From positions 1,888,001 through 1,952,000 of the forward strand of contig OZ242010.1 of assembly GCA_965204745.1 (NCBI GenBank): 64,000 bases of DNA, written 5' to 3'. The notes beneath the pieces were generated by a model that was not told the DNA's origin, made no database searches, and saw only the letters and a program-made list of their open reading frames with translations. The stretch is from Candidatus Latescibacterota bacterium. GTDB lineage: Bacteria > Latescibacterota > UBA2968. A program made the translations under genes and the position numbers. Positions 4,824-55,533 of this stretch are shown here, one piece after another; the stretch's first letter is position 1, and the number at the start of each line of letters is the position of its first letter.

Positions 4824-4852
4824 ATCCCCTATCCATTTCAGAGGCTTAGGCC

Positions 4853-7546
4853 ATGATTCTCATTCCATCGGAAGCAAGCGTTAGGCGGTCAGTGGTGGGC
4901 AAACGTCCCGTTTTGCTCGCATGCTTACCACTTCTCCTCGCGCTGTCAACGGTCTTTGTTTTTGGGCATGACCTGCGAAGTCACATAGAGCGTTCTCATA
5001 CTCACTCTATCCCTACGCATCATAGAATGGCGATAGCCGCCAATCTGTCTTTGGATCACAACTTCTTGCAGTTCTATCTCCAAACGCTCGAGGCAGATGG
5101 CACGGTTTCTTACGAACCGTATAATCGCTTTCCCATAGGTGGGCATGGGCTCATTGCGCTGGCTATCCTGCCCTTTGGCGATGACTTGGCAAGCCAACTC
5201 TATGCGGCCAGGACCCTGATGTTGCTGTGCTTTGTTGCCACAGCACTGCTGGCGTATCTCTGCCTTTGCCGGCTGACACATCATCCATGGATCGCCGCAA
5301 CCGCGACGCTCTTGGCGTTCTCATCGTTCTATTGCTTGTTCTATAGCGATATGGTGCATAATGAAGCGGGGATCGATCTGCTCGGGGTGATGCTGACCTT
5401 CCACGGGATGGTCATTTTCTTATGTGAGGGGCGTTTTCGGCAACTGCTGGTCAAGACGTGCATCGCGCTGTTTTTGGGCTGGCATGTCTATGCGTTGCTG
5501 TTGCCCTTTATCGCGCTCGGAGTGGTGCGCGAATGCCTCCACATGCGTTCAGTCCCTTTCAAGTTGAAGTGCTCCTGCCTGCTTCGCAGTCGCTATGTGT
5601 TGCTCGGCATTGTCGCATTGCTGTTTGGTTTGTCCTTATTGGCCTTTAATTTTGTCAATGAATACGTCGCGCTGAAAGGTGAGAAATCCCTGACGGAATT
5701 ACCGTCTTTCCGGTCTATGATATATCGCACGGGAATGGGTACCCCAGAAGATCGCCCTTCGCGCCCCTTGAAGTGGGATTCCTTCCTGCGAGGTCAATTC
5801 TCTCGCATTGGTGGGATGTCAACGCCGTATTTTATTTTTCCCTGCTTTGGCGTGCTTAGGCCACCGCAATCTTACGTGCCCTTGTCCGTTGGTGTGGGCA
5901 TTGGGGTGTCTATTGCGTGTCTGTTTGGGGTGTATTTCACGCGCCCGAGAATCCTTTGGGCGACCTTGATTCTGTTTGGCTTCTGTTGGACATTGCCCAT
6001 ACGCCATAACGTTAAAATGCTTGGCCATGAATTCGAGAGCGTGTTTTACATCGGCCTGCCCCTGGTCTTCTTCTCGCTTATTCTGCTGTGTCTATCCCGA
6101 CGCTTCAAGACCCCTCCCTTGATGGTCGGCTTTGCGGGTGTTGCGCTGATCATCTTTGTGCTTTCCAGTTTTCAGATGAGCCATTTCTATGCCCCCGATG
6201 CGACGCAACGCCAAAAGGTCGAGCTATCGGACATTGCAGCCATCCGCCGGTTAACGGCAGATGGCGACCTCATTTTTGTGCCGTTCTATGACCCACCTGA
6301 TTTAAATCGGACGTCGCGAGCTTACGAGAGGGCGAAGAGAAATTACTATTGGTCGCGGAGGATCATTCACACTCATTCTCTCCCCGCAGAGGGCTTCACG
6401 ATGATGTACGATCGTCTGGAGACAGACGCACTGCTCACGCCGAAAAACGAGCGGATATTTCTTTATGACTCCAAGAAATTGCTCAAAGCGTATCGGCAGG
6501 CAGTCGTGTCTGGCGAGCTCGTGGCGCGGTCAACCTTTGATGTGTATCGCGATGAGCGTGCGGTGCATTACGTCAAAAGTCCCTGTTCTGACGCGGACAT
6601 GCAGACCAAATTCTTCTTGCACATCTTTCCGACAGACGCGAGATCGATTCCCGTCCGCTGCAGGTGGCTTGGATATGACAACGAGGTCTTTAAGTTTCAG
6701 GATCGCGGTCTGCGGTTCGATGACAAATGCTTGGCGAGCATCGCGCTTCCGCACTACGATATCGCCCGGATTGAAACCGGGTCACTTTCCCGCGATTCCG
6801 ATCCAGAGCGGCTCGAGGTGTATCGGCAGGCATATCAGCGGGTCGTGTCTGGCGAGGTGGTGGCGCGGTCAACCTTCGATGTGTATCGCGATGAGCGCAC
6901 GTTGTATTACGTCAAAAGTCCCTGTTCTGATGCGGACGTGAAATTTCGATTCTTCTTGCACATCTTTCCCGCAGACGCGAAGGAGCTTCCCGTCCATCGC
7001 AGGCCGTATGGATATGACAACTACGACTTTGATTTTTCTTCGCAAGGTCAGCGGTTCGATGACAAATGCTTGGCGGGCATCGCGCTTCCGCATTACGATA
7101 TCGCCCGGATTGAAACCGGGCCACTTTCCCCCGGTCAAAGCAATGAACGCGCTGATGATCCCGGCAGGCTCGAGGTGTATCGGCAGGTTTATCAACGGGT
7201 CGTGTCTGGCGTGCCTGTGGCGCGGTCAATTTTCGATGTGTATCGCGATGAGCGCACATTGTATTACGTCAAAAGTCCCTGTTCTGATGCGGATGTGAAA
7301 TTACAATTCTTCTTACACCTCTTTCCGGCAGACGCGAAGGAGCTTCCCAGCCGTCGCTGGCAGTGGGGGTATAACAACGACAACTTTTCTTTTGTTGATC
7401 AAGGTCAGCGGTTCGATGACAAATGCTTGGCGAGCATCGCGCTTCCGCACTATGCCATCGCTCGTATTGAAACGGGTCAGTTCCATTGGAACAGCGGTGG
7501 CAAACACTGGGAGGCTAAAATTTTTTTCGACGAACAATCAAAGTAG
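4853..7546 (+). CDS. Array paralog 2 (3 C-terminal repeats)
   Basis: 897 aa ORF collinear with the other copies. Confidence 0.88.
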   Translation: MILIPSEASVRRSVVGKRPVLLACLPLLLALSTVFVFGHDLRSHIERSHTHSIPTHHRMAIAANLSLDHNFLQFYLQTLEADGTVSYEPYNRFPIGGHGLIALAILPFGDDLASQLYAARTLMLLCFVATALLAYLCLCRLTHHPWIAATATLLAFSSFYCLFYSDMVHNEAGIDLLGVMLTFHGMVIFLCEGRFRQLLVKTCIALFLGWHVYALLLPFIALGVVRECLHMRSVPFKLKCSCLLRSRYVLLGIVALLFGLSLLAFNFVNEYVALKGEKSLTELPSFRSMIYRTGMGTPEDRPSRPLKWDSFLRGQFSRIGGMSTPYFIFPCFGVLRPPQSYVPLSVGVGIGVSIACLFGVYFTRPRILWATLILFGFCWTLPIRHNVKMLGHEFESVFYIGLPLVFFSLILLCLSRRFKTPPLMVGFAGVALIIFVLSSFQMSHFYAPDATQRQKVELSDIAAIRRLTADGDLIFVPFYDPPDLNRTSRAYERAKRNYYWSRRIIHTHSLPAEGFTMMYDRLETDALLTPKNERIFLYDSKKLLKAYRQAVVSGELVARSTFDVYRDERAVHYVKSPCSDADMQTKFFLHIFPTDARSIPVRCRWLGYDNEVFKFQDRGLRFDDKCLASIALPHYDIARIETGSLSRDSDPERLEVYRQAYQRVVSGEVVARSTFDVYRDERTLYYVKSPCSDADVKFRFFLHIFPADAKELPVHRRPYGYDNYDFDFSSQGQRFDDKCLAGIALPHYDIARIETGPLSPGQSNERADDPGRLEVYRQVYQRVVSGVPVARSIFDVYRDERTLYYVKSPCSDADVKLQFFLHLFPADAKELPSRRWQWGYNNDNFSFVDQGQRFDDKCLASIALPHYAIARIETGQFHWNSGGKHWEAKIFFDEQSK

Positions 7547-7575
7547 ATCCCCTATCCATTTGGGAGGCTTAGGCC

Positions 7576-10281
7576 ATGATTCTCATTTTATCGGAGGCAA
7601 GCGTTAGGCGGTCAGTGGCGGGCAAATGTCCCGTTCTGCTCGCTTGCTTACCGCTGCTCCTCGCGCTGTCAACGGTCTTTGTTTTTGGGCATGACCTGCG
7701 AAGTCACATAGAGCGTTCTCATAGTCACTCTGTCCTTACGCATCATAGAATGTCGATAGCCGCCAATCTGTCTTTGGATCACAACTTCTTGCAGTTCTAT
7801 CTCCAAACGCTCGGGGCAGATGGCACGGTTTTTTACGACTGGCTGTACAATCGCTTTCCCATAGGTGGGCATGGGCTCATTGCGCTGGCTATCCTGCCCT
7901 TTGGCGATGACTTGGCAAGCCAACTCTATGCGGCCAGGACCCTGATGTTGCTGTGCTTTGTTGCCACAGCACTGCTGGCGTATCTCTGCCTTTGTCGGCT
8001 GACACATCATCCATGGATCGCCGCAACCGCGACGCTCTTGGCGTTCTCATCGTTCTATTGCTTGTACTACGCCGATATGGTCATGAATGAAACGGGGATC
8101 GACCTGCTTGGGGTAATGTTGACCTTTCACGGGATGGTCATTTTCTTATGTGAGGGTCGCTTTCGGCAACTGCTGGTCAAGACGTGCATCGCGCTGTTTT
8201 TGGGCTGGCATGTCTATGCGTTGCTGTTGCCCTTTATCGCGCTCGGATTGGTGCGCGAATGCCTCCACATGCGTTCAGCTCCTTTCAAACTGAAGTGCTC
8301 CCGCCTGCTTCGCAGTCGCTATGTGTTGCTCGGCATTGTCGCATTGCTTTTGGGGTTGTCCTTGTTGACCTTTAATTTTGTCAATGAGTACGTCGCGCTG
8401 AAAGGTGAGAAATCCCTGACGGAATTACCGTCTTTCCGGTCTATGATATATCGCATGGGAATAGGTACCCCAGAAAATCGCCCTTCGCGCCCCTTGAAGT
8501 GGGATTTCTTCCTGCTAGATCAATTCTCTCGCATTGGTGGGATGTCAACGCCGTATTTCATCCTGCCCTCTCTCGGCGCACTTAGGCCCCCAGAGTCTTA
8601 CGTGCCTTTGTCCGTTGGCGTGGGCATTGGGGTGTTTGTTGCGTGTCTGTTTGGGGTGTATTTCACGCGCCCGCGAATCCTTTGGGCGACCTTGGTTCTA
8701 TTTGGCTTCTGTTGGGCATTGCCCATGCGCTATAACGTTGAAGCACCTAACCATAGTTTCGAGAGCGTGTTTTACATCGGCCTGCCTCTGGTCTTCTTCT
8801 CGCTTATTCTGCTGTGCCTATCCCGCCGCTTCAAGACCCCGCTTTTGATGGTCGGCTTTGCGGGTGCTGCACTGATCATCTTTGTGCTTTCCAGTTTTCA
8901 GATGAGCCGCTTCTATGCCCCCGATGCGACGCAACGCCAAAAGGTCGAGCTATCGGACGTTACAGCCATCCGCCGGTTAACGGCAGATGGCGACCTCATT
9001 TTTATACCGTTCTCTGACCCACCTGATTTAAATCGGACGTCGCGACCTTACGAGAAGGCGAAGCAAAATTACTATTGGTCGCGGAGGATCATTCACTTTC
9101 ATTCTCTCCCCGCAGAGGGCTTCACAGTGATGTACGATCGCCTGGAGACAGACGCACTGCTCACGCCGAAAAACGATCGGATATTCCTTTATGACTCCAA
9201 GAAATTGCTCAAAGCGTATCGGCAGGCATATCAGCGGGTCGTGTCTGGCGAGTTCGTGGCGCGGTCAACCTTTGATGTTTATCGCGACGAGCATGCGTTG
9301 CATTACGTCAAAAGTCCCTGTTCTGATGCGGACATGCAGACCAAATTCTTCTTGCACCTCTTTCCGACAGACGCGAGATCGATTCCCGTCCGCCGCAGGT
9401 GGCTTGGATATAACGACAAAATTTTTAATTTTCAGGATCGCGGTCTGCGGTTCGATGACAAATGCTTGGCGAGCATCGCGCTTCCGCACTACGACATCGC
9501 CCGGATTGAAACCGGGTCACTTTCCCGCGATTCCGATCCAGAGCGGCTCGAGGTGTATCGGCAGGCATATCAGCGGGTCGTGTCTGGCGCGCCTGTGGCG
9601 CGGTCAATTTTCGATGTGTATCGCGATGAGCACATGTTGTATTACGTCAAAAGTCCCTGTTCTGATGCGGACGTAAAATTACGATTCTTCTTGCACATCT
9701 TTCCCTCAGACGCGAAGGAGCTTCCCGTCCACCGCAGGCAGTATGGATATGACAACTACGACTTTGATTTTTCTTTTCAAGGTCAGCGGTTCGATGACAA
9801 ATGCTTGGCGGGCATCGCGCTTCCGCCTTACGATATCGCCCGGATTGAAACCGGATCACTTTCCCCCGGTCAAAGCAAAGAACGCGCTGATGATCCCGGC
9901 AGGCTCGAGGTGTATCGGCAGGTATATCAGCGGGTCGTATCTGGCGCGCCTGTGGCGCGGTCAACCTTCGATGTGTATCGCGATGATCGCACGTTGTATT
10001 ACGTCAAAAGTCCCTGTTCTGATGCGGATGTGAAATTACAATTCTTCTTGCACATCTTTCCTGCAGACGCGAAGGAGCTTCCCAGCCGTCGCTGGCAGTG
10101 GGGGTATAACAACGACAACTTTTCTTTTGTTGATCAAGGTCAGCGGTTCGATGACAAATGCTTGGCGAGCATCGCGCTTCCGCACTATGCCATCGCTCGT
10201 ATTGAAACGGGTCAGTTCCATTGGAACAGCGGTGGCAAACACTGGGAGGCTAAAATTTTTTTCGACGAACAATCAAAGTAG
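7576..10281 (+). CDS. Array paralog 3 (3 C-terminal repeats)
   Basis: 901 aa ORF collinear with the other copies. Confidence 0.88.
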   Translation: MILILSEASVRRSVAGKCPVLLACLPLLLALSTVFVFGHDLRSHIERSHSHSVLTHHRMSIAANLSLDHNFLQFYLQTLGADGTVFYDWLYNRFPIGGHGLIALAILPFGDDLASQLYAARTLMLLCFVATALLAYLCLCRLTHHPWIAATATLLAFSSFYCLYYADMVMNETGIDLLGVMLTFHGMVIFLCEGRFRQLLVKTCIALFLGWHVYALLLPFIALGLVRECLHMRSAPFKLKCSRLLRSRYVLLGIVALLLGLSLLTFNFVNEYVALKGEKSLTELPSFRSMIYRMGIGTPENRPSRPLKWDFFLLDQFSRIGGMSTPYFILPSLGALRPPESYVPLSVGVGIGVFVACLFGVYFTRPRILWATLVLFGFCWALPMRYNVEAPNHSFESVFYIGLPLVFFSLILLCLSRRFKTPLLMVGFAGAALIIFVLSSFQMSRFYAPDATQRQKVELSDVTAIRRLTADGDLIFIPFSDPPDLNRTSRPYEKAKQNYYWSRRIIHFHSLPAEGFTVMYDRLETDALLTPKNDRIFLYDSKKLLKAYRQAYQRVVSGEFVARSTFDVYRDEHALHYVKSPCSDADMQTKFFLHLFPTDARSIPVRRRWLGYNDKIFNFQDRGLRFDDKCLASIALPHYDIARIETGSLSRDSDPERLEVYRQAYQRVVSGAPVARSIFDVYRDEHMLYYVKSPCSDADVKLRFFLHIFPSDAKELPVHRRQYGYDNYDFDFSFQGQRFDDKCLAGIALPPYDIARIETGSLSPGQSKERADDPGRLEVYRQVYQRVVSGAPVARSTFDVYRDDRTLYYVKSPCSDADVKLQFFLHIFPADAKELPSRRWQWGYNNDNFSFVDQGQRFDDKCLASIALPHYAIARIETGQFHWNSGGKHWEAKIFFDEQSK

Positions 10282-10310
10282 ATCCCCTATCCATTTGGGA
10301 GGCTTAGGCC

Positions 10311-12662
10311 ATGGTTCTCATTCCATCAGAGGCAAGCGTTAGGCGGTCAGTGGCGGGCAAACGTCCCGTTCTGCTCGCCTGCTTATCGCTGCTCCTCGCG
10401 CTGTCAACGGTCTTTGTTTTTGGGCATGACCTGCGAAGTCACATAGAGCGTTCTCCTAGTCACTCTGTCCCTACGCATCATGCAATGTCGATAGCCGCCA
10501 ACCTTTCTCCAGATCACCACTTCTTGATGTTCTATCGCCAAACGCTCAATGCCGATGGCGCGGTTTCTTACATACCGTATAATCGTTTTCCCATAGGTGG
10601 GTATGTGCTCATTGCACTGGCTATCCTGCCCTTTGGCGATGACTTGGCAGCCCAACTCTATGCGGCCAGGACCCTGATGTTGCTGTGCTTTGCCGCAACC
10701 GCACTGCTGGCGTATCTCTGCCTTTGCCGGCTGACACATCATCCTTGGATCGCTGCAACCGCGACGCTCTTGGCGTTCTCATCGTTCTATTGCTTGTTCT
10801 ACAGCGATATGGTCTATAATGATACGGGGATCGACCTGCTTGGGGTAATGCTGACTTTTCACGGGATGGTCATTTTCTTATGTGAGGGTCGTTTTCGGCA
10901 ACTGCTGGTCAAGATGTGCATCGCGCTGTTGGTAGGCAGGCATGTCTATGCGTTGCTGTTGCCCTTTATCGCGCTCGGATTGGTGCGCGAATGCCTCCAC
11001 ATGCGTTCAGTCCCTTTCAGGCTGAAGTGCTCCCGCCTGCTTCGCAGTCGCTATGTGTTGCTCGGCATTGTCGCATTGCTTTTGGGGTTGTCCGTCTTGA
11101 CCTTTAATTTTGTCAATGAATACGTCGCGCTGAAAGGTGAAAAAGCACTGACGGAATTACCGTCTTTCCAGTCTATGATATATCGCACGGGAATAGACAC
11201 GGGAGCATATACAGATAGATATGACGAGCCAGCCCTGAAAGGGTGGGATTCCTTCCTGCTGGGTCAATTTTCTCGTATCGGTGGGATGTTCACGCCGTAT
11301 TTTATTTTTTTCTTTCTCGGCGTGCTTAGGCCCCCGCAGTCTTACGTGCCCTTGTCCGTTGGCGTGGGCATTGGGGGGTTTGTTGCGTGTCTGGTGGGGG
11401 TGTATTTCACGCGCCCGCGAATCCTTTGGACGCCCTTGATTCTGTTTGGCCTCTGTTGGGCATTGCCCATGCGCCATACCGTTAAAGTGTATGCCCATGA
11501 CTTCGAGAGCGTATTTTACATCGGCCTGCCTCTGGTCTTCTTCTCGCTTATTCTGCTGTGCCTATCCCGCCGCTTCAAGACCCCTCCTTTGACGGTCGGC
11601 TTTGCGGGTATTGCGCTGATCGTCTTTGTGCTTTCCAGTTTTCAGATGAGCCGCTTCTATGCCCCCGATGCGACGCAACGCCAAAAGGTCGCGCTGGCAG
11701 ACGCGACAGCCATCCGCCGATTAACAGCAACTGGCGACCTCATTTTTAAGCCGTTCCCGTTCTATGACTCACCTGATTTAAATCCGCCGACGCTACATTA
11801 CTATTTTGCGCGAAGGATCATTCACTCTCATGCTCTCACCGCAGAGGGCTTCACAGTGATGAATGATCGCCTGGAGACAGACGCGCTGCTCACGCCGAAA
11901 AACGAGCGGATATTCCTCTATGACTCTAAGAAATTGCTCAAAGCGTATCGGCAGGCAGTCGTGTCTGGTGAATTGGTGGCGCGGTCAACCTTCGATGTGT
12001 ATCGCGACGAGCATGTGTTGCATTACGTCAAAAGTCCCTGTTCTGATGCGGACATGCAGACCAAATTCTTCTTACACCTCTTTCCGACAGACGAGAGATC
12101 TATTCCCGTCCACCGCAGGTGGTTTGGATATGATACCGATGTCCTTAAGTTTTGGCACTACGGTTTGCGCTTCGACGATAAATGCTTGGCGAGCGTCGCG
12201 CTTCCGCATTACGATATCGCCCGGATTGAAACCGGGCCACTTTCCCCCGGCCAAAGCGATGAACGCGCTGATGATCCCGACAGGCTCGAGGTGTATCGGC
12301 AGGTATATCAACGGGTCGTGTCTGGCGAATTGGTGGCGCGGTCAACCTTCGATGTGTATCGCGATGAGCGCACGTTGTATTACGTCAAAAGTCCCTGTTC
12401 TAATGAGGATGTGAAAACCAAATTCTTCTTGCATATCTTTCCGACCAATAGGCAGGAACTGGACTCCCGTCGTTGGCAGTGGGGGTATGACAACGACGGC
12501 TTTGATTTTTCTGAGCAAGGTCTGCGGTTCGATGACAAATGCTTGGCGAGCGTCGCGCTTCCGCACTACGACATCGCCCGGATTGAAACGGGTCAGTTCC
12601 ACTTTGACAGTAGAGGCAAACAATGGAAGGCTAAAATTTTTCTCGACGAACAGTCAAAGTAG
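10311..12662 (+). CDS. Array paralog 4 (2 C-terminal repeats)
   Basis: 783 aa ORF collinear with the other copies. Confidence 0.88.
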   Translation: MVLIPSEASVRRSVAGKRPVLLACLSLLLALSTVFVFGHDLRSHIERSPSHSVPTHHAMSIAANLSPDHHFLMFYRQTLNADGAVSYIPYNRFPIGGYVLIALAILPFGDDLAAQLYAARTLMLLCFAATALLAYLCLCRLTHHPWIAATATLLAFSSFYCLFYSDMVYNDTGIDLLGVMLTFHGMVIFLCEGRFRQLLVKMCIALLVGRHVYALLLPFIALGLVRECLHMRSVPFRLKCSRLLRSRYVLLGIVALLLGLSVLTFNFVNEYVALKGEKALTELPSFQSMIYRTGIDTGAYTDRYDEPALKGWDSFLLGQFSRIGGMFTPYFIFFFLGVLRPPQSYVPLSVGVGIGGFVACLVGVYFTRPRILWTPLILFGLCWALPMRHTVKVYAHDFESVFYIGLPLVFFSLILLCLSRRFKTPPLTVGFAGIALIVFVLSSFQMSRFYAPDATQRQKVALADATAIRRLTATGDLIFKPFPFYDSPDLNPPTLHYYFARRIIHSHALTAEGFTVMNDRLETDALLTPKNERIFLYDSKKLLKAYRQAVVSGELVARSTFDVYRDEHVLHYVKSPCSDADMQTKFFLHLFPTDERSIPVHRRWFGYDTDVLKFWHYGLRFDDKCLASVALPHYDIARIETGPLSPGQSDERADDPDRLEVYRQVYQRVVSGELVARSTFDVYRDERTLYYVKSPCSNEDVKTKFFLHIFPTNRQELDSRRWQWGYDNDGFDFSEQGLRFDDKCLASVALPHYDIARIETGQFHFDSRGKQWKAKIFLDEQSK

Positions 12663-12691
12663 ATCCCCTATCCATTTCAGAGGCTTAGGCC

Positions 12692-15031: not shown

Positions 15032-15060
15032 ATCCCCTATCCATTTCAGAGGCTTAGGCC

Positions 15061-17739: not shown

Positions 17740-17768
17740 ATCCCCTATCCATTTCAGAGGCTTAGGCC

Positions 17769-20072: not shown

Positions 20073-20137
20073 AGTAGGTGATACATCTGAGCGTTACGCA
20101 CAACTGCTCTTTCAAATCAACTTAGGAGGCTTAGGCC

Positions 20138-22468: not shown

Positions 22469-22497
22469 ATACCCTATCCATTTCAGAGACTTAGGCC

Positions 22498-24888: not shown

Positions 24889-24917
24889 ATACCATATCGT
24901 TTTAGGAGGCTTAGGCC

Positions 24918-27209
24918 ATGGTTCTAACAGATGCCAGCGTTAGGCGGTCAGTCGCGGGCAAACGTCCCGTTCTGCTCGCTTGCTTACCGTTGCTCCTCGC
25001 GCTGTCAACGGTCTTTATTTTTTGCCACGACCTGCGAAGCCACTGTGTACGTTCTTATAGTCACTCTGTCCTTACGCATCATAAAATGGCGATAGCCGCC
25101 AATCTGTCTTTGGATCACCACTTCCTGATGTTCTATCGCCAAACGCTCAATGCCGATGGCGCGGTTTCTTACGAACTGTATAATCGCTTTCCCATAGGTG
25201 GGTATGTGCTCATCGCGCTGGCTATCCTGCCCTTTGGCGATGACTTGGCAACCCAACTCTATGCGGCAAGGACCCTGATGTTGCTGTGCTTTGTTGCAAC
25301 AGCACTGCTGGCCTATCTCTGCCTTTGCCGGCTGACACATCATCCCTGGATCGCCGCAACCGCGACGCTCTTGGCGTTCTCATCATTCTATTGCTTGTTC
25401 TACAGCGATATGGTGCATAATGAAACGGGGATCGACCTGCTCGGGGTGATGCTGACTTTTCACGGGATGGTCATTTTCTTATGTGAGGGTCGTTTTCGGC
25501 AACTGCTGGTCAAGATGTGCATCGCGCTGTTTTTGGGCTGGCATGTCTATGCGTTGCTGTTGCCCTTTATCGCGCTCGGATTGGTGCGAGAATGCCGTCG
25601 TGCGCGTTCAGTCCCTTTCAAGTTGAAGTGCTCCCGCCTACTTCGCAGTCGCTATGTGTTGCTCGGCATTGTCGCGTTGCTCGTTGGGTTGTCCTTGTTG
25701 ACCTTTAATTTTGTCAATGAATACGTCGCGCTGAAAGGTGAGAAATCCCTGACGGAATTACCGTCTTTCCAGTCTATGATGTATCGCACGGGAATAGATA
25801 CCCCATGGTATAGACTACAGAACCCCTTGAGGTGGGATTCCTTTCTGCTGGGTCAATTCTCTCGCATTGGTGGGATGTTCACGCCGTATTTTATTTTCCC
25901 CTACCTTAGCGCACTTCCCCCGGAGTTTTATGTGCCCTTGTCTGTTGGCGCGGGCATTGGGGTGTTTGTTTTTTATCTATTTGGGGTATATTTCACGCGC
26001 CCGAGAATCCTTTGGGCGACCTTGGGTCTGGTTGGCTTCTGTTGGGCATTGCCCATGCGCCATAATGTTAAAGAGCTTTCCCATAGCTTCGAGAGCGTGT
26101 TTTACATCGGCCTGCCTCTGGTCTTCTTCTCGCTTCTTCTGCTGTGCCTATCCCGCCGCTTCAAGGCCCCTCCTTTAATGGTCGGCTTTGCGGGTGTTGC
26201 CCTGATCGTCTTTGTGCTTTCCAGTTTTCAGATGAGCCACTTCTATGACCTCGATGCGACGCAACGCCAAAAGGTCGAACTGTCCGACGTTACAGCCATC
26301 CGCCGGTTAACGGCAGAGGACGACCTCATTTTTCTACCGTTCTATAGCTCATCTGATTTAAATCCGCCGAAGCTACATTACTATTTGGCGCGGAGGATCA
26401 TTCACGCTCATTCTCTCACCGCAGAGGGCTTCACGCTGATGGATGATCGCCTGGAGACAGACGCGTTGCTCACGCCGAAAAACGAGCGGATATTTCTTTA
26501 TGACTCCAAGAAATTGCTCAAAGCGTATCGGCAGGCAGTCGTGTCTGGCGAGTTGGTGGCGCGGTCAACCTTTGATGTGTATCGGGATGAGCGCACGTTG
26601 CATTACGTCAAAAGTCCCTGTTCTGACGCGGACATGAAGACCAAATTCTTCTTGTACATCTTTCCGACAGATGAGAGATCTATTCCCTTTGGATATGACA
26701 ACGAAGTCTTTAAGTTTCAGGATCGCGGTTTGCGCTTCGACGATAAATGCTTGGCGAGCGTCGCGCTTCCGAACTACGATATCGCCCGGATTGAAACCGG
26801 GCCACTTTCCCCGGCCCAAAGCAAAGAACGCGGAAGGCGCGAGGTGTATCGGCAATATCAACGGGTCGTGTCTGGCGAGTTGGTGGCGCGGTCAACCTTC
26901 GATGTGTATCGCGACGAGCGTGTGTTGCATTACGTCAAAACGCCCTGTTTTGATGAAGACATAAAAACCAAATTCTTCTTGCACATCTTTCCGACCGACA
27001 GAAAGGAACTGCCCTCCCATCGCTGGCTGTGGGGGTATGACAACGACGACTTTTCTTGGCGTAAGCGAGGCCTGCGGTTCGATGACAAATGCTTGGCGAG
27101 CATCGCGCTTCCACACTACGACATCGCCCGGATTAAAACGGGTCAGTTCTACGATGATGGGGTTAGAGTGTGGGAGGTAGAAATTTCTCTCAACGAGCAG
27201 TCAAAGTAG
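24918..27209 (+). CDS. Array paralog 10 (2 C-terminal repeats)
   Basis: 763 aa ORF. MVLTDAS start shared with paralog 1. Confidence 0.88.
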   Translation: MVLTDASVRRSVAGKRPVLLACLPLLLALSTVFIFCHDLRSHCVRSYSHSVLTHHKMAIAANLSLDHHFLMFYRQTLNADGAVSYELYNRFPIGGYVLIALAILPFGDDLATQLYAARTLMLLCFVATALLAYLCLCRLTHHPWIAATATLLAFSSFYCLFYSDMVHNETGIDLLGVMLTFHGMVIFLCEGRFRQLLVKMCIALFLGWHVYALLLPFIALGLVRECRRARSVPFKLKCSRLLRSRYVLLGIVALLVGLSLLTFNFVNEYVALKGEKSLTELPSFQSMMYRTGIDTPWYRLQNPLRWDSFLLGQFSRIGGMFTPYFIFPYLSALPPEFYVPLSVGAGIGVFVFYLFGVYFTRPRILWATLGLVGFCWALPMRHNVKELSHSFESVFYIGLPLVFFSLLLLCLSRRFKAPPLMVGFAGVALIVFVLSSFQMSHFYDLDATQRQKVELSDVTAIRRLTAEDDLIFLPFYSSSDLNPPKLHYYLARRIIHAHSLTAEGFTLMDDRLETDALLTPKNERIFLYDSKKLLKAYRQAVVSGELVARSTFDVYRDERTLHYVKSPCSDADMKTKFFLYIFPTDERSIPFGYDNEVFKFQDRGLRFDDKCLASVALPNYDIARIETGPLSPAQSKERGRREVYRQYQRVVSGELVARSTFDVYRDERVLHYVKTPCFDEDIKTKFFLHIFPTDRKELPSHRWLWGYDNDDFSWRKRGLRFDDKCLASIALPHYDIARIKTGQFYDDGVRVWEVEISLNEQSK

Positions 27210-27238
27210 ATCCCCTATCCATTTGGGAGGCTTAGGCC

Positions 27239-29560
27239 ATGATTCTCATTCCATCAGAGGCAAGCGTTAGGCGGTCAGTCGCGGGAAAATGTCCCGTTCT
27301 GCTCGCATGCTTACCGCTACTCCTCGCGCTGTCAACGGTCTTTGTTTTTGGGCATGACCTGCGAAGTCACATAGAGCGTTCTCCTGGTTACTCTAACCTT
27401 ACGCATCATAAAATGTCGATAGCCGCCAACCTTTCTCCAGATCACAACTTTCTGATGTTCTATCGCCAAACGCTCAATGCCGATGGCGCGGTTTATTACG
27501 AAATGTATAATCGCCATCCCATAGGTGAGTTTGTGCTCATTGCGCTGGCTATCCTGCCCTTTGGCGATGACTTGGCAAGCCAACTCTATGCGGCAAGGAC
27601 CCTGATGTTGCTGTGCTTTGTTGCAACAGCACTGCTGGCGTATCTCTGCCTTTGCCGGCTAATACATCATCCCTGGATCGCCGCAACCGCGACGCTCTTG
27701 GCGTTCTCATCGTTCCATTGCTTGTTCTACAGCGATATGGTGTTCAATGATACGTGGATCGACCTGCTTGGGGTAATGCTGACTTTTCACGGGATGATCA
27801 TTTTCTTCTGTGAGGGTCGCTTTCGGCAACTGCTGGTCAAGACGTGCATCGCGCTGTTTTTGGGCTGGCATGTCTATGCGCTGCTGTTGTCCTTTATCGC
27901 GCTCGGAGTGGTGCGGGAATGCCGCCGTGCGCGTTCAGTCCCTTTCAAGTTGAAGTGCTCCCGCCTGCTTCGCAGTCGCTATGTGTTGCTCGGCATTGTC
28001 GCATTGCTGTTTGGGTTGTCCTTGTTGACCTTTAATTTCGCTAATGAATACGTCGCGCTGAAAGGTGAGAAATCCCTGACGGAATTACCGTCTTTCCAGT
28101 CTATGACGTATCGCACGGGAATAGACCCAGGAAATAGACCAGGTCGCCCCTTGAGGTGGAATTCCTTTCTGCGAGATCAATTCTCTCGCATTGGTGGGGT
28201 GTCAACGCCGTATTTTATTTTTTTCTATCTTAGCGCACTTCCCCCGCAGTCTTACGTGCCCTTGTCCGTTGGTGTGGGCATTGGGGTGTCTATTGCGTGT
28301 CTGGTGGGGGTGTATTTCACGCGCCCGAGAATCCTTTGGGCGCCCTTGATTCTGCTTGGCTTCTGTTGGGCATTGCCCATGCGCTATCAAGTTAAAACGC
28401 CTGGTCATGCTTATGAGAGCATGTTTTACATCGGCCTGCCACTGGTCTTCTTCTCGCTTATTCTGCTGTGCCTATCCCGACGCTTCAATGCCCCGCTTTT
28501 GATGGTCGGCTTTGCGGGTATTGCCCTGATCGTCTTTGTGCTTTCCAGTTTTCAGATGAGCCATTTCTATGCCCCCGATGCGACGCAACGCCAAAAGGCT
28601 GAGTTGGCAGACGCGACAGCCATCCGCCGGTTAACGGCAGAGGACGACCTCATTTTCTTTACCCCTGGTTTCAATCTGGCGAAGCTACGTTACTATTTGG
28701 CGCGGAGGATCATTCACTCTCATTCTCTCACCGCAGAGGGCTTCACGCTGATGGATGATCGCCTGGAGACAGACGCGTTGCTCACGCCGAAAAACGAGCG
28801 GATATTCCTTTATGACTCCAAGAAATTGCTCAAAGCGTATCGGCAGGCAGGCGTGTCTGGCGAGGTGGTGGCGCGGTCAACCTTCGATGTATATCGCGAT
28901 GAGCACACGTTGTATTACGTCAAAAGTCCCTGTTCTGACGCGGACATGCAGACCGAATTCTTCTTGCACATCTTTCCGACAGACACGCAGGAACTGCTCT
29001 CTCATCGCTGGCAGTGGGGGTATGACAACGACGACTTTTCTTTTCATACGCGAGGCCTGCGGTTCGATGACAAATGCTTGGCGAGCATCGCGCTTCCACA
29101 CTACGACATCGCCCGGATTGAAACCGGGCCACTTTCCCCCGGCCAAAGCAATGAACGCACTGATGATCCCGGGATGCTCAAAGCGCATCGGCAGGTATAT
29201 CAACGGGTCGTGTCTGGCGCGCCTGTGGCGCGGTCAACTTTCGATGTGTATCGCGATGATCGCACGTTGTATTACGTCAAAAGTCCCTGTTCTGATGCGG
29301 ACGTGAAATTACGATTCTTCTTACACCTCTTTCCCGCAGACGCGAAGGAGCTTCTCAGCGGCTTTCACCGCTGGCAGTATGGATATAACAACGACGACTT
29401 TAATTTTTCTGATCAGGGCCTGCGGTTCGATGACAAATGCTTGGCGAGCGTCGCGCTTCCGCACTACGACATCGCTCGTATTGAAACGGGTCAGTTCCAC
29501 TGGAACAGCGGTAGCAAACAATGGAAGGCTAAAATTTTTCTTGACGAACAGTCAAAGTAG
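27239..29560 (+). CDS. Array paralog 11 (2 C-terminal repeats)
   Basis: 773 aa ORF collinear with the other copies. Confidence 0.88.
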   Translation: MILIPSEASVRRSVAGKCPVLLACLPLLLALSTVFVFGHDLRSHIERSPGYSNLTHHKMSIAANLSPDHNFLMFYRQTLNADGAVYYEMYNRHPIGEFVLIALAILPFGDDLASQLYAARTLMLLCFVATALLAYLCLCRLIHHPWIAATATLLAFSSFHCLFYSDMVFNDTWIDLLGVMLTFHGMIIFFCEGRFRQLLVKTCIALFLGWHVYALLLSFIALGVVRECRRARSVPFKLKCSRLLRSRYVLLGIVALLFGLSLLTFNFANEYVALKGEKSLTELPSFQSMTYRTGIDPGNRPGRPLRWNSFLRDQFSRIGGVSTPYFIFFYLSALPPQSYVPLSVGVGIGVSIACLVGVYFTRPRILWAPLILLGFCWALPMRYQVKTPGHAYESMFYIGLPLVFFSLILLCLSRRFNAPLLMVGFAGIALIVFVLSSFQMSHFYAPDATQRQKAELADATAIRRLTAEDDLIFFTPGFNLAKLRYYLARRIIHSHSLTAEGFTLMDDRLETDALLTPKNERIFLYDSKKLLKAYRQAGVSGEVVARSTFDVYRDEHTLYYVKSPCSDADMQTEFFLHIFPTDTQELLSHRWQWGYDNDDFSFHTRGLRFDDKCLASIALPHYDIARIETGPLSPGQSNERTDDPGMLKAHRQVYQRVVSGAPVARSTFDVYRDDRTLYYVKSPCSDADVKLRFFLHLFPADAKELLSGFHRWQYGYNNDDFNFSDQGLRFDDKCLASVALPHYDIARIETGQFHWNSGSKQWKAKIFLDEQSK

Positions 29561-29589
29561 ATACCTTATCCATTTCAGAGGCTTAGGCC

Positions 29590-31929
29590 ATGATTCTCAT
29601 TCCATCGGATGCCGGGGTTAGGCGGTCAGTGGCGGGAAAACGTCCCGTTCTGCTCGCTTGCTTGCCGCTTCTCCTCGCGCTTTCAACGGTCTTTGTTTTT
29701 GGCCATGACCTGCGAAGTCACCTTGTGCGTTCTGTGGGTCACTCTGACTTTACGTATCATAAAATGGCGATAGCCGCCAACCTTTCTCCAGATCACCACT
29801 TTCTGATGTTCTATCGCCAAACGCTCAATGCCGATGGCGCGGTTTCTTACGTACCGAATAATCGCTTTCCCATAGGTGGGCATGTGCTCATCGCGCTGGC
29901 TATCCTGCCCTTTGGCGATGACTTGGCAACCCAACTCTATGCGGCAAGGACCCTGATGTTGCTGTGCTTTGCCGCCACAGCACTGCTGGCGTATCTCTGC
30001 CTTTGCCGGCTGACACATCATCCCTGGATCGCCGCAACCGCGACGCTCTTGGCGTTCTCATCGTTCTATTGCTTGTTCTTCAGCGATATGGTGTTCAATG
30101 AAACGGGGATCGATCTGCTCGGCGTGATGCTGACTTTTCACGGGATGGTCATTTTCATTTTTGAGGGTCGCTTTCGGCAACTGCTGGTCAAGATGTGCGT
30201 CGCGCTGTTTTTGGGCTGGCATGTCTATGCGTTGCTGTTGCCCTTTATCGCGCTCGGAGTGGTGCGGGAATGTTGCCGTGCGCGTTCAGTCCCTTTCAAG
30301 TTGAAATGCTCCCGCCTGCTTCGCAGTCGCTATGTGTTGCTCGGCATTGTCGCGTTGCTCGTTGGGTTGTCCTTATTGACCTTTAATTTTGTCAATGAAT
30401 ACGTCGCGCTGAAAGGTGAAAAATCACTGACGGAATTACCGTCTTTCCGGTCTATGATATATCGCACGGGAATGGGTACCCCAGAAAATCGCCCCTTGAA
30501 CTCCTTGAAGTGGGATTTCTTCCTGATAGAACAATTCTTTCGTATTGATTTGATGTGCATGCCGCAATTCATCCTGTCCTGCCTCGATGCACTTCCCCGG
30601 AGTTATTATGTGCCCTTGTCTGTTGGCGCGGGCATTGGGGTGTCTATTGCGTGTCTGTTTGGGGTGTATTTCACGCGCCCGAGAATCCTTTGGGCGACCT
30701 TGGTTCTGTTCGGCTTCTGTTGGGCATTGCCCATGCGCCATAACGTTAAAGTGTATGCCCATGACTTCGAGAGCGTGTTTTACATCGGTCTGCCCCTGGT
30801 CTTCTTCTCGCTAATTCTGCTGTGCCTATCCCGCCGCTTCAAGACCGCGCCTTTGATGGTCGGCTTTGCGGGTATTGCGCTGATCGTCTTTGTGCTTTCC
30901 AGTTTTCAGATGAGCCATTTCTATGCCCTCGATGCGACGCAACGCCAAAAGGTCGAGCTATCGGACATTGTAGCCATCCGCCGGTTAACGACAGAGAACG
31001 ACCTCATTTTTATTTTTTTTAACTCGTCCAACCTCTACATCGAGACAAATCGGATAAGATACTATCTGAACCGGAGAATTATTCACGCTCATGCTCTCAC
31101 CGCAGAGGGCTTCACAGTGATGTTTGATCGCCTGGAGACAGACGCGTTGCTCACGCCGAAAAACGAGCGGATATTCCTTTATGACTCCAAGAAATTGCTC
31201 GAGGAGTATCGGCAGGTATATCAACGGGTCGTGTCTGGCGAGTTGGTGGCGCGCTCGACCTTCGATGTGTATCGCGATGAGCGTGCATTGCATTACGTCA
31301 AAAGTCCCTGTTCTGATGCGGACATGCAGACCAAATTCTTCTTCCACATCTTTCCGGCAGACGAGAGATCTATTCCCTTCCACCGCAGGTGGTTTGGATA
31401 TGATACCGCCGTCTTTGCGTTTTGGAAACACGGTTTGCAATTCGACGATAAATGCTTGGCGAGTATCGCGCTTCCACACTACGATATCGCCCGGATTGAA
31501 ACCGGGCCACTTTCCCCCGGCCAAAGCAATGAACGCGCTTATGATCCCGACAGGCTCGAGGTGTATCGGCAGGCATATCGACAGGTCGTGTCTGGCGAGT
31601 TGGTGGCGCGGTCAACCTTTGATGTGTATCGCGACGAGCGTGTGTTGCATTACGTCAAAACGCCCTGTTCTGACGCGGACGTGAAGACCAGATTCTTCTT
31701 GCACATCTTCCCGACTAACAGGAAGGAACCATCCTCCCTGTACTATCGGTGGAGGTATGAAAACATCGACTTTGATTTTTCTTCGTACGGCCTGCGGTTC
31801 GATGGCAAATGCTTGGCGAGCATCGCGCTTCCGCACTACGACATCGCCCGGATTAAAACGGGTCAGTTCTACGACGATGGGGTTAGAGTGTGGGAGGCAG
31901 AAATTTTTCTCAACGAGCAGTCAAAGTAG
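29590..31929 (+). CDS. Array paralog 12 (2 C-terminal repeats)
   Basis: 779 aa ORF collinear with the other copies. Confidence 0.88.
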   Translation: MILIPSDAGVRRSVAGKRPVLLACLPLLLALSTVFVFGHDLRSHLVRSVGHSDFTYHKMAIAANLSPDHHFLMFYRQTLNADGAVSYVPNNRFPIGGHVLIALAILPFGDDLATQLYAARTLMLLCFAATALLAYLCLCRLTHHPWIAATATLLAFSSFYCLFFSDMVFNETGIDLLGVMLTFHGMVIFIFEGRFRQLLVKMCVALFLGWHVYALLLPFIALGVVRECCRARSVPFKLKCSRLLRSRYVLLGIVALLVGLSLLTFNFVNEYVALKGEKSLTELPSFRSMIYRTGMGTPENRPLNSLKWDFFLIEQFFRIDLMCMPQFILSCLDALPRSYYVPLSVGAGIGVSIACLFGVYFTRPRILWATLVLFGFCWALPMRHNVKVYAHDFESVFYIGLPLVFFSLILLCLSRRFKTAPLMVGFAGIALIVFVLSSFQMSHFYALDATQRQKVELSDIVAIRRLTTENDLIFIFFNSSNLYIETNRIRYYLNRRIIHAHALTAEGFTVMFDRLETDALLTPKNERIFLYDSKKLLEEYRQVYQRVVSGELVARSTFDVYRDERALHYVKSPCSDADMQTKFFFHIFPADERSIPFHRRWFGYDTAVFAFWKHGLQFDDKCLASIALPHYDIARIETGPLSPGQSNERAYDPDRLEVYRQAYRQVVSGELVARSTFDVYRDERVLHYVKTPCSDADVKTRFFLHIFPTNRKEPSSLYYRWRYENIDFDFSSYGLRFDGKCLASIALPHYDIARIKTGQFYDDGVRVWEAEIFLNEQSK

Positions 31930-32066
31930 GTGATACATCTAAGCGTTACGCCACAACCGCTCTTTCAAATCAACGAGTATCTCATCAAATCTCGCATCTT
32001 CTCAATCCCTTTGCATACGACAAGTGCGATCATCTGCCGTAATCCTTTTCACCCATCGAGGTTTCC

Positions 32067-39293: not shown

Positions 39294-39385
39294 GGTTCAC
39301 TCCAGGTGAGAGGCAAGAGGTGAGAAGGAAGAGGGCCGCCCTGCCCAACCCCCTTCGGCAAGACGGGAGATACTCTCTTAAAAGG

Positions 39386-40393
39386 TCAAGGGGTTTTCGG
39401 GGTGATTCGATAGAATTTTTCGCCCTCAAAATCTTGGTCATGGCGCAACATGCCCCAGATCGAATGGAGCAACTTTCGCATCACCGCAACGATAGCCTGC
39501 AAAGGTTTCTTGCCGCGGGCGATGAGTTGGTCATAGAAGGCTTTGACATGGCCTTCGTGTCTGATGGCCACCCAGGCAGGCATATAGAGGGCATGGCGGA
39601 GGTACTTATTCCCGGTTTTCGAGATGCGTCTTTGTGGATTGGCGGTTCCGGATTGTTTGGGTTTGGGATCCAGGCCTGCATGTGCGACCCACTGGGGCGG
39701 TTGCATCTCCTCTGGCAAAAGGGTCAACTCGGCCAAGAGCCGCAAGGCACTCGTTTGCGCGATGCCAGGCGTCGAGCAGAGGCGTTGGTAGGCACGCTTG
39801 AGGGGCTCATCGTGCAAAACGAGATCGAGGGCTTGGCTTTCCAAGTATGCAATCCGGCGTTTGAAGTGTCGAATATTCACCTGAATATCGCGTGCGATGA
39901 GACGTGTGCTGCGGATGTGGTAGCTCTGCGCGTGGTTGCGGCTCTGTTCGCGGATGATCTCCTGCTTGAGTTGGTCAATGCGTCTGGTGAGGGCTTGCAG
40001 TTGAAGCCGTTGCTCGCTCGGCGCTTGCCAAGGCACAAAAGGCATGCGCTCGGCATAGTCGAGGATCAACAACGCATCCTTCGCATCCGTCTTCGCCCGT
40101 TGCATGCAGGCTTGGGCGTACTTGCTCATCGCTTTGGGATTGACGACCATGACCTTTGTGTGGCGATGCCGATGCAAGGCCAAGGCCACCCCCAAACTGT
40201 AAAGCCCGGTCGCTTCGAGGCACACAGAGACCATGTGCCCGCCCTTCGTGAGCCACTTCAGCAACCGCTTATGGGCTTGGGGATCATTGGCAAAGGTCGC
40301 TTGCATGACAGCTTGTCCGGGTCTGGACAGGGCAACGGACAACGTGCGGGCACTGACATCAATGCCGGCAAAAGCGGGGTGAGATTTCGACAT
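39386..40393 (-). CDS. IS110 DEDD recombinase/transposase
   Basis: GIDVS, EATG, KTDAKDA and AGLDP...QSG motifs. AGGAGG RBS before MSKSHP. Confidence 0.95.
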   Translation of the reverse strand: MSKSHPAFAGIDVSARTLSVALSRPGQAVMQATFANDPQAHKRLLKWLTKGGHMVSVCLEATGLYSLGVALALHRHRHTKVMVVNPKAMSKYAQACMQRAKTDAKDALLILDYAERMPFVPWQAPSEQRLQLQALTRRIDQLKQEIIREQSRNHAQSYHIRSTRLIARDIQVNIRHFKRRIAYLESQALDLVLHDEPLKRAYQRLCSTPGIAQTSALRLLAELTLLPEEMQPPQWVAHAGLDPKPKQSGTANPQRRISKTGNKYLRHALYMPAWVAIRHEGHVKAFYDQLIARGKKPLQAIVAVMRKLLHSIWGMLRHDQDFEGEKFYRITPKTP

Positions 40394-40404
40394 GGGGGCC
40401 TCCT

Positions 40405-40655
40405 GTGATGAGGGGGTTGTAAGGGATCTGGTGCGCGCTCGGGGTCGCGTCCCGACCATTGACGCCAAGTCTACCGGTCTTGTATATGCAGCCTCAAGGG
40501 GCTTAGATACTCTTCGGCATAGACCCGGCGGTCGGGGGGCCTATCTTACCTACAAGGTCATCGCCTTCAAGAGGGGCCGGCCTTCCCCGAGCCGGGCATC
40601 AAGATGGCTTATCTCGATACGAGGGCGCAACTCCTAATTAACCCTTACTTCCAAG
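40405..40655 (-). ncRNA. Predicted IS110 bridge RNA (copy 1)
   Basis: Non-coding end upstream of the transposase with two internal loops carrying target- and donor-matching segments. RNA boundaries are approximate. Confidence 0.75.
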
Positions 40656-54391: not shown

Positions 54392-54514
54392 TGTCGTTCC
54401 CTCGCGTTGAATGGGTCTGGGTTTGAGTAATGGGTGCGAAAATAAATCATGAGAAGGATAATGTCAATAGGGGCAAGAGGGGAGAGGCAAGAGGCAAGAT
54501 ACTCTCTTAAAAGG

Positions 54515-55522: not shown

Positions 55523-55533
55523 GGGGGCCTCCT

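Follow-up and report, generated by a model that had tools for sequence, protein, structure and literature searches.

Organisation of the paralog array

The DNA analysed here, a stretch of 64,000 nucleotides (nt) of contig OZ242010.1 from a Candidatus Latescibacterota bacterium (termed the window), was found to carry an array of twelve complete tandem paralogous genes on the + strand (2385-31929), the products of which are mosaics of one another that very probably originate by recombination among the paralogs. The genes (c1 to c12, in order) were identified from the listing of open reading frames (ORFs) and their translations as co-directional ORFs of 763-901 amino acids (aa) filling positions 2331-31929. 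An earlier note on this sequence had placed the family at 4853-31929; its end was correct, but its start is that of c2, with c1, itself cited in that note, lying upstream.

The ORF of c1 (2385-4823, 812 aa, with a two-repeat tail) opens with TTG at 2331; the ATG at 2385 is preceded by a conserved spacer and ribosome-binding site (RBS), and was hence taken as the start. Copies c2 (4853-7546, 897 aa), c3 (7576-10281, 901 aa) and c6 (15061-17739, 892 aa) possess a three-repeat tail, which in c2 has a period of 357 nt and 2.8 copies. The remaining copies are c4 (10311-12662, 783 aa), which was used for modelling and is predicted to consist of a membrane domain with a glycosyltransferase C (GT-C) fold at approximately aa 17-447 and a C-terminal domain at aa 448-783, c5 (12692-15031, 779 aa), c7 (17769-20072, 767 aa), the tail of which is shortened, with 27 nt deleted and 2 nt inserted close to the 3' end, c8 (20138-22468, 776 aa), c9 (22498-24888, 796 aa), c10 (24918-27209, 763 aa), c11 (27239-29560, 773 aa) and the final copy, c12 (29590-31929, 779 aa). 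The G+C content of the array is 0.51-0.53 compared to 0.55-0.61 for its flanks, and its coding strand is T-rich.

Ten of the eleven spacers between copies are 29 nt in length and near-identical, with AGAGG or GGAGG situated 8-9 nt before the ATG. These are the c1/c2 spacer (4824-4852) and those at 7547-7575, 10282-10310, 12663-12691, 15032-15060, 17740-17768, 22469-22497, 24889-24917, 27210-27238 and 29561-29589, all on the + strand. The exception is the c7/c8 spacer (20073-20137, + strand), which is 65 nt long, approximately 44 nt of it being homologous to the sequence that follows c12, the 3' flank of the array (31930-31975, + strand), from which it was copied. A divergent sulfatase gene (861-2288, - strand) is separated from c1 by a region (2289-2384, + strand), the 3' end of which repeats the conserved spacer and RBS CATTTCAGAGGCTTATGCC. 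This region is likely to contain the promoter of the array, although sigma-70-like matches within it were weak and their count was not above that of shuffled sequence. Scans for sigma-70 promoters and terminators likewise gave counts no higher than for shuffled sequence, and are uninformative regarding internal promoters. The layout of near-identical 29-nt spacers with an RBS suggests that all copies may be co-transcribed on one long transcript.

Each copy was also observed to contain an open frame of 150-186 aa in another + strand frame over the C-terminal repeats (4069-4575, 6465-6941, 9191-9676, 11863-12414 and at matching later places). These are probably a by-product of the codon make-up of the repeats. 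A 39-nt tandem duplication (24020-24097, 2.0 copies, 92% match), found only in c9, adds 13 residues (LTAEGFTV...DRP) just before the C-terminal repeats. A tRNA-SeC called by ARAGORN inside c7 (19628-19705, - strand) was rejected as a probable false positive; an Rfam gathering scan was empty there and identified no family in the window.

Shared motifs and tests for recombination

Nine instances of motifs shared between copies had led the earlier note to describe the paralogs as mosaics, and all nine were present in a MAFFT alignment of the twelve proteins. The three-repeat tail is common to c2, c3 and c6, while c5 and c11 share DTQEL.SHRWQW and ELLSG.HRWQY. Copy c10 shares DTPW.RLQNPLRW and LSALPPEFY with c8, HNVKELSHSFES with c9, the motif FYDDGVRVWE with c12 and its MVLTDAS start with c1. 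Furthermore, VKVYAHDFES is common to c4 and c12, NVKMLGH to c2 and c6, and FDSRGKQWK to c4 and c9. When thirteen variable segments were clustered at 85% identity, the groupings obtained were not nested: segments V4 and V4b group c8 with c10, V5 groups c9 with c10 and c4 with c12, the tail groups c10 with c12 and c4 with c9, and both repeat loops group c5 with c11. Nucleotide identity between copies is flat (84.7-94.1%), being only slightly lower for copies that lie further apart (Spearman -0.33; 57 of 5000 permutations gave as low a value). The exact nucleotide identities between copies have a median length of 83 nt, the longest being 219 nt.

The pairwise homoplasy index (PHI) test, which had been suggested in the earlier note, gave a z of -19.7 across 451 informative gap-free sites, a value not reached in any of 1000 permutations (neighbouring sites had a mean incompatibility of 0.536, against 0.659 +/- 0.006 in permuted data). 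A signal was also obtained for the membrane domain alone (z -8.5, 0/1000), which has no internal repeat to misalign, and for separate sections of the protein, namely aa 1-300 (z -2.95, 3/1000), aa 300-600 (z -7.9, 0/1000) and the last repeat with the tail (z -7.2, 0/1000). In a GENECONV-style test, the longest identical run of polymorphic sites was matched by at most one of 500 permutations for 25 of the 66 copy pairs, with tracts of approximately 60-230 nt. Sliding trees, another check proposed in that note, were also in conflict. Maximum likelihood trees of six segments disagreed at ultrafast bootstrap values of 92-100, the conflicting clades being (c9,c12) in segment S2, (c8,c10) in S3, (c7,c12,c8) in S4 and ((c5,c11),(c8,c9)) in S5, and each segment rejected the trees obtained for the remaining five (all 30 approximately unbiased (AU) tests, largest p-AU 0.0145).

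The signal persisted when PHI was confined to 90 informative synonymous sites of amino-acid-invariant codons, where, out of 2000 permutations, 45 (k=3), 2 (k=5) and 50 (k=8) reached so low a value, and 66% of site pairs were incompatible; selection-driven convergence is thus no explanation for it. As a control, 30 alignments were simulated without recombination on the best single tree (GTR+F+G4, alpha 0.225), of which 20 were analysed. The PHI z of these had a mean of 0.05 and a minimum of -2.03, compared to -19.3 for the real data over the same gap-free columns. A Hudson-Kaplan Rmin of 136 and failure of the four-gamete test in 29869 of 50721 biallelic pairs were also obtained, but as these values are inflated by recurrent mutation they were not relied on, and PHI with its simulation control was used instead.

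Recombination signal and conflicting trees were therefore found within one genome and against a simulation control, and together identify a paralog family diversified by interlocus gene conversion. The gene conversion or unequal crossover among paralogs put forward in the earlier note is supported by PHI, the conflicting trees, the AU tests and the copied flank in the c7/c8 spacer, and recombination among the paralogs is the one interpretation that agrees with the data. Its picture of shuffled cassettes holds as far as the mosaics arise by recombination, but as incompatibility is high even between adjacent sites, exchange is not limited to neat cassettes.

Counterparts in other assemblies and the timing of exchange

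Close relatives in other assemblies were retrieved from a search of 5.8 billion protein clusters, with comparisons made at the protein level. Nine window copies were found to have full-length counterparts elsewhere at 91.9-99.7% amino-acid identity, compared to at most approximately 91% for the closest paralog inside the window. These pairs are c1 with P0022 (98.2%), c3 with P0003 (97.9%), c5 with P0007 (99.7%), c6 with P0005 (96.6%), c8 with P0018 (96.5%), c9 with P0019 (91.9%), c10 with P0008 (96.9%), c11 with P0012 (96.1%) and c12 with P0015 (93.5%). In addition, c2 is matched by P0045, a 444-aa fragment (99.8% identity over 442 aa). Of these counterparts, P0003, P0005, P0012 and P0015, along with P0021, belong to the array of a sister strain on a contig of 5,279,007 nt. 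A tree of 52 proteins placed the twelve copies and 20 close relatives in one clade with a Shimodaira-Hasegawa-like approximate likelihood ratio test (SH-aLRT) value of 100, with the copies of the nearest species of the genome collection outside, and within this clade the window copies pair with their own counterparts at SH-aLRT 99-100. As the counterparts keep their backbones, diversification of the array is older than the split between strains.

Exchange was nonetheless found to have continued after the strains diverged. Protein P0008 equals c10 throughout except for alignment columns 471-521, where all 12 of its differences from c10 equal c5. P0019 equals c9 from approximately column 304 onwards and resembles c10 or c7 before this. 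Within the window, c9 and c12 are identical at 77 of 79 positions in columns 62-140, with an exact nucleotide identity of 200 nt, while each is identical to its own counterpart at 72 of 79. For 16 of the 22 close relatives, no single window copy could have supplied all of the cassettes matched at >=90%. Of the 256 cassettes in these relatives, 122 have no equivalent in the window at that threshold, indicating that a larger cassette pool exists in the wider population. Both states of 147 of 263 counterpart differences occur among other window paralogs, which is suggestive but has no rigorous null. A count of counterpart differences matching another paralog was dropped, since private mutation in a window copy gives the same pattern.

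The exchange had been called ongoing in the earlier note. On an evolutionary time scale this is borne out by the tract of P0008 and the homogenisation of c9 and c12, but the retention of full-length counterparts by nine copies shows that shuffling is slow, and it does not amount to a rapid switch.

Changes in copy number and a heptanucleotide repeat in c1

The c7/c8 spacer was read as the scar of a block duplication or unequal crossover. Its copy of the 3' flank, together with the damaged 3' end of c7, suggests that c7 was once the terminal copy and that a block was added beyond it. The nearest species available is represented by a metagenome-assembled genome (MAG), OZ251458.1, labelled Candidatus Latescibacterota, at 73% identity. 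One of its loci (L001, 7697-17083) has the upstream sulfatase gene on the - strand followed by four copies, while another (L002, 4991-12352), situated 0.6 Mb away and inverted, has three copies followed by a sulfatase and glycoside hydrolase family 2 (GH2) pair, as found after the array of the window. Copies at syntenic flanks therefore number twelve in the window and four plus three in OZ251458.1, a difference that also supports unequal crossover or block duplication. The separation of the flanks in OZ251458.1 would be consistent with an inversion whose two ends lay within arrays. Copy number also varies within genes, with a third 357-nt repeat unit carried by c2, c3 and c6.

A perfect heptanucleotide repeat, GAGGCAA x8.7, was identified inside c1 (3064-3124, + strand), where it encodes (GKRQEAR)x3 in a predicted cytoplasmic loop. 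As the unit of 7 nt is not a multiple of three, the gain or loss of one unit would shift the frame, and in the other two downstream frames a stop is encountered after 2 and 33 codons. The counterpart P0022 is shorter than c1 by exactly 7 aa, equal to three repeat units. The tract could act as a slipped-strand on/off switch for the first gene of the array.

Predicted fold and conserved residues

An AlphaFold2 model of c4, made with a 37-sequence family alignment (members 38-74% identical to c4), had a predicted local distance difference test (pLDDT) score of 82.8 and a predicted TM-score (pTM) of 0.79. Foldseek comparison of this model with the PDB gave 23 matches at E<=1e-3, all of which are GT-C enzymes with a probability of 1.00. 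The leading matches were STT3 (1.7e-6), ALG12, ArnT (5f15, TM-score 0.52 by target), PglB, AglB, ALG9 and AftA, and TM-scores by target reached 0.53. The predicted structure thus has the multi-pass membrane architecture of GT-C enzymes, and neighbours of the protein in a language-model atlas were PMT_2/ArnT/RgtA-D-like clusters (score 0.98). Membership of the GT-C superfamily is supported only by this predicted fold.

When modelled (pLDDT 84.8), the C-terminal 310 aa form a small alpha/beta portion and, beyond it, two beta-sandwich repeats. When the repeats were searched alone, only generic fibronectin type III (FnIII) or cytokine-receptor beta-sandwich matches were returned, with TM-scores of 0.08-0.30. 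Each repeat contains one invariant pair of cysteines, which suggests that the repeats are located outside the cytoplasm; they probably carry disulfides there.

Polar residues that are conserved or invariant in the family are D/E40, N64, D/E68, R92, R140, D166, R194, K201, E270, R388, H396 and E399. Among the 37 members, D/E40 is present in 33, D/E68 in 34 and D166 in 36, while E270, R388 and H396 are present in all. In the array, D/E40, which directly follows the first transmembrane helix (TM1), was found in all twelve copies and D/E68 in eleven (N in c6). Sixty of 66 family-conserved positions are identical in all twelve copies, and the six exceptions are each confined to one copy, with c1 the most deviant (three of the six). 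This retention suggests that all copies are functional. Residue 210 of c4 (10938-10940) is R, in place of a W found in 36 of the 37 family members and in the other eleven copies, within a conserved G-W-H motif between two membrane helices.

Nei-Gojobori comparison among the copies gave a proportion of synonymous differences (pS) of 0.19, a proportion of nonsynonymous differences (pN) of 0.10 and an overall ratio of the corresponding rates (dN/dS) of 0.50. Windows of 15 codons with dN>=dS were located at alignment columns 46-60, 76-90, 241-255, 301-330, 391-420, 511-525, 541-555, 721-735 and 901-915. Segment V5 consists of seven hypervariable residues, situated between the invariant R388 and H396/E399. 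Under an 11-helix reading of the model, in which helix 94-108 would not span the membrane, the positive-inside rule appears to be satisfied at every loop, and pN is 0.140 for outer loops, 0.049 for transmembrane helices, 0.063 for cytoplasmic loops and 0.124 for the C-terminal domain. Amino-acid variation is concentrated in the loops between helices and in those of the C-terminal repeats, and these variable loops would then face the periplasm or exterior. This arrangement resembles that described for a GT136 enzyme of GT-C type, in which 11 transmembrane helices are combined with a periplasmic domain behind TM1 and a C-terminal domain rich in beta structure (PMC11127046). The model and the distribution of variation together make a GT-C-like protein with outward-facing variable loops a reasonably probable description of each copy.

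Distribution of the family and other arrays

The family search returned at least 1123 matches among 8000 candidates scored, and the family was found to comprise 2201 clusters at 50% identity with E<=0.001 (664 of these at E<=1e-30), none of which carried a name in the sources searched. Relatives are encoded by 407 stretches of the species-representative genomes, and the 52 loci retained are from MAGs labelled Latescibacterota, Dehalococcoidia/Chloroflexota, Nitrospirales, Gammaproteobacteria, Vicinamibacterales, Bryobacterales and Caldilineaceae. Tandem arrays were identified elsewhere with four and three copies in Latescibacterota, five to six in Nitrospirales, and seven to ten per locus of 13-23 kb in three Dehalococcoidia genomes. 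One Dehalococcoidia array, spread over two overlapping loci, comprises 13 full copies and a further one truncated at the edge of the locus, with nucleotide identities of 68-95%. This array gave a PHI z of -23.8 (0/1000), so mosaicism belongs to the arrays of the family and extends beyond the genome of the window. Full-text literature searches, whose coverage excludes subscription journals, returned no description of such arrays among the papers listed, and the gene family and its array habit appear to be undescribed.

Neighbouring genes and mobile elements

The array is flanked by genes for sulfatases, a GH2 protein, a GDPD protein, further sulfatases and two IS110 copies. The earlier note had stated that no dedicated recombinase is adjacent, and none was identified in or adjoining the array, the nearest candidates being the two IS110 transposase genes 7.5 and 22.6 kb downstream; no reverse-transcriptase or invertase domain was detected in 34 flanking ORFs scanned. 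The IS110-family insertion sequences (39357-40468 and 54486-55597, - strand, each with a 360-aa transposase) are 99-100% identical and lie 15.1 kb apart. They bracket a sulfatase gene, an AAA_21/DUF3226 pair, subunits of xanthine dehydrogenase type and a protein with sterile alpha motif (SAM) domains.

A second heptanucleotide repeat (GTAAGAC x21.9, 99% match, 44359-44511) extends from the last codons of the AAA_21 (AbiEii-like) ATPase gene to 36 nt before the DUF3226 gene. The SAM-domain protein (460 aa, 51581-52963) possesses two eukaryote-type domains (Pfam SAM_1, E 3e-34), which are unusual in bacteria, and its gene holds a 261-nt internal direct repeat (52073-52786, 77% identity). The set of phyla in which the family occurs, together with the sulfatases and the SAM-domain protein, is reminiscent of sponge-associated consortia.

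Proposed explanation and alternatives

Taken as a whole, the locus is best explained, with a fair degree of probability, as an operon-like array of twelve intact GT-C-fold paralogs that are mosaic by mutual recombination and vary in outward-facing loops, each composed of a membrane domain of approximately 450 aa and two or three C-terminal beta-sandwich repeats. The simplest mechanism is general homologous recombination between misaligned or sister copies. As no dedicated recombinase was identified in the array or beside it, exchange is likely to be carried out by the general recombination machinery, for which the exact identities of up to 219 nt between copies offer a substrate. Short non-reciprocal tracts of approximately 60-230 nt pass between copies that are mostly non-adjacent, and occasional unequal crossover or block duplication alters copy number. 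Each copy may be a lipid-linked-sugar transferase with a differing acceptor-facing surface, this being the least certain step, and the array may then equip the cell with a combinatorial repertoire of modifications to surface glycans or glycoproteins, the diversity of which would be maintained by phage or host selection. Such a repertoire of glycan specificities is a tentative reading, somewhat doubtful on present data.

Several results weigh against this explanation. Regarding recombination, two of the 20 null simulations reach a PHI p<=0.05, and part of the incompatibility is homoplasy, as site pairs are incompatible at 46% (maximum 48.7%) in simulations without recombination compared to 61% in the real data. 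Regarding the fold, none of three window copies matched Pfam at E<=0.1, apart from a papillomavirus E7 match (E 0.022, below cut-off) rejected as due to chance, and neither of two copies matched NCBIfam. Of the 37 family members compared with Pfam, one touched PMT_2 (E 0.003) and one PMT (E 0.0043), so that the proteins do not belong by sequence to the curated GT-C families of Pfam or NCBIfam (PMT, PMT_2, STT3, Glyco_transf_22 and others). A sequence profile search of the PDB returned no GT-C chain; its matches, to SMR and, at E 6.7e-4 along a stretch of helix, to an RND transporter, were all spurious hits to membrane proteins. The Foldseek TM-scores are modest at 0.29-0.38 by query. The c4 model has twelve helices, whereas an N-in/C-out topology needs an odd number. 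Positive selection on the loops is suggested by the short windows with dN>dS, but dN/dS is 0.50 overall. Lastly, no conserved neighbour gene of the arrays was found across 12 loci of other phyla (35 ORFs), and no lipid-sugar synthase or flippase was identified among the 34 window ORFs scanned or these 35 array-adjacent ORFs, although such partners could lie elsewhere in the genome.

The alternative that comes closest on the side of recombination, though it was judged rather improbable, is that the mosaics are mostly old, inherited from already mosaic ancestral duplications or acquired by allelic exchange with the arrays of other strains, with no active generator today. The nine counterparts, paired with window copies at 99-100 SH-aLRT, fit this, as does a mean synonymous difference of 0.19 among the copies, by which many exchanges are not recent, and the unmatched cassettes of relatives show a wider pool that could enter by inter-strain exchange. 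However, tracts of 200-219 nt without any difference join copies that are otherwise 87-94% identical, c9 and c12 were homogenised in the window lineage only, and the donor type of the P0008 tract, c5, sits in the same array. Assembler chimeras among near-identical repeats are a very remote explanation. Mis-assembly is a well-known hazard with tandem repeats such as these, which are 2.3-2.7 kb long and 85-94% identical, but counterparts of ten copies have the same backbones and cassette orders elsewhere, and the occurrence of the same mosaics in independent assemblies removes this explanation; moreover, all twelve reading frames are intact, exact identities are short (median 83 nt), and the window proteins are recorded on a 5.48-Mb contig. 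Convergent selection on a few allowed loop sequences, with no DNA exchange, was considered equally far-fetched. It could draw on the variable segments with dN>=dS and on the homoplasy of the simulations, but common tracts are identical at the nucleotide level, the signal is present at synonymous sites of invariant codons, and null simulations gave no PHI signal of such size.

Programmed shuffling by a diversity-generating retroelement, a shufflon-type invertase or an expression site fed by silent cassettes would suit the cassette-like alternation of variable and constant blocks, yet it is highly improbable here, as none of the 34 flanking ORFs scanned contains a reverse-transcriptase or invertase domain, all copies have the same orientation, and all twelve are complete with a start codon and RBS, so that none is silent. 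The proteins could also have kept a GT-C-like fold while serving mainly as variable surface-exposed binders or receptor decoys for recognition or evasion. The lack of Pfam or NCBIfam membership, of a donor-synthesis or flippase partner nearby, and of anything beyond weak FnIII-like matches for the generic beta-sandwiches of the C-terminus would agree with this role, but D166, E270, R388, H396, R92, R140 and R194, in or beside the membrane domain, are invariant across the 37-sequence alignment and kept in the twelve copies, a better fit to a catalytic or substrate site; a binder or decoy role is accordingly unlikely.

Gene conversion among paralogs is a textbook process, but in bacteria it is uncommon for large tandem arrays of complete, conserved genes for enzyme-like membrane proteins to diversify in this manner. 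The process is known, and the new aspects are the family, its array habit across phyla and the placing of variation in probably outward-facing loops. Should the copies be glycosyltransferases with different acceptor specificities, the array would provide a new route to cell-surface variation in uncultured bacteria, as well as a natural library of related GT-C enzymes with exchanged recognition loops. A more speculative and rather unlikely extension is that such arrays are an unrecognised surface-diversification system across phyla, in which acceptor loops and C-terminal repeats are re-assorted by conversion, the c1 tract acts as a slipped-strand switch on the array, and habitat-linked horizontal spread has carried the system among Latescibacterota, Dehalococcoidia, Nitrospirales, Gammaproteobacteria and Acidobacteriota. 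A single cell line would in that case possess a combinatorial set of glycan or glycoprotein modifications, on which its recognition by phages or a host would depend, and would gradually re-assort this set.

Comparison with known systems

In Neisseria pilE/pilS, Borrelia vlsE and Anaplasma msp2, a single expressed gene is fed by truncated, promoterless donors and switches at high frequency. The array resembles these systems in its segmental gene conversion and in its variable blocks framed by conserved blocks, but consists of twelve complete genes (with an ATG and AGAGG/GGAGG) in place of silent cassettes, and the counterparts of its copies persist between strains. It is also unlike diversity-generating retroelements, as no reverse-transcriptase domain was found in the 34 ORFs scanned and its variable segments have paralog donors and not a template repeat. 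In dynamics, the Neisseria opa genes are among its nearest parallels, as are the tandem arrays of eukaryotes. About a dozen full-length opa paralogs are present per genome, their hypervariable segments are re-assorted by homologous recombination with no dedicated recombinase, and every copy has a coding repeat, of a length not a multiple of three, which can switch it on or off. The array likewise consists of full-length paralogs with re-assorted segments, and the 7-nt repeat of c1 parallels the opa coding repeat. However, opa genes are dispersed and encode small outer-membrane beta-barrel adhesins, whereas the array is tandem, encodes large GT-C-like proteins predicted to lie in the inner membrane and has the repeat in c1 only.

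Plant NLR clusters and tandem arrays of trypanosomes are reported to evolve by duplication, loss and interlocus gene conversion (10.1101/694240, PMC4619397, PMC1855330). Like the array of the window, they consist of tandem paralogs whose segment trees conflict, show conversion tracts and changes in copy number, and combine conserved cores with variable parts that face a ligand. They differ from it in being eukaryotic and subject to meiotic recombination, while the array is bacterial and operon-like with 29-nt spacers.

The closest parallel in function is with GT-C enzymes, which in three-component periplasmic glycan-modification systems set acceptor or serotype specificity (PMC11127046), a specificity from which surface diversity arises. 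The predicted proteins of the array appear to share the layout of the Gtr*/GT136-type enzymes described there, in which an N-terminal helix is followed by an extracytoplasmic domain, a multi-helix bundle, an outer loop that is both long and flexible, and an extracytoplasmic C-terminal domain rich in beta structure. A likeness to GT-C enzymes in general, such as ArnT, PMT, STT3/PglB/AglB, ALG9/12 and Aft/Emb, is the predicted fold, and the acidic residue right after TM1 (D/E40) may be another; sequence membership of a named family is lacking. The three-component GtrA/GtrB/Gtr* systems have their lipid-sugar synthase and flippase adjacent and one enzyme per system, whereas neither partner was found among the ORFs scanned here and twelve or more copies stand in tandem. 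Finally, unlike in GT-C enzymes, the C-terminal module of the array proteins is repeated two to three times, with a pair of cysteines in each repeat.

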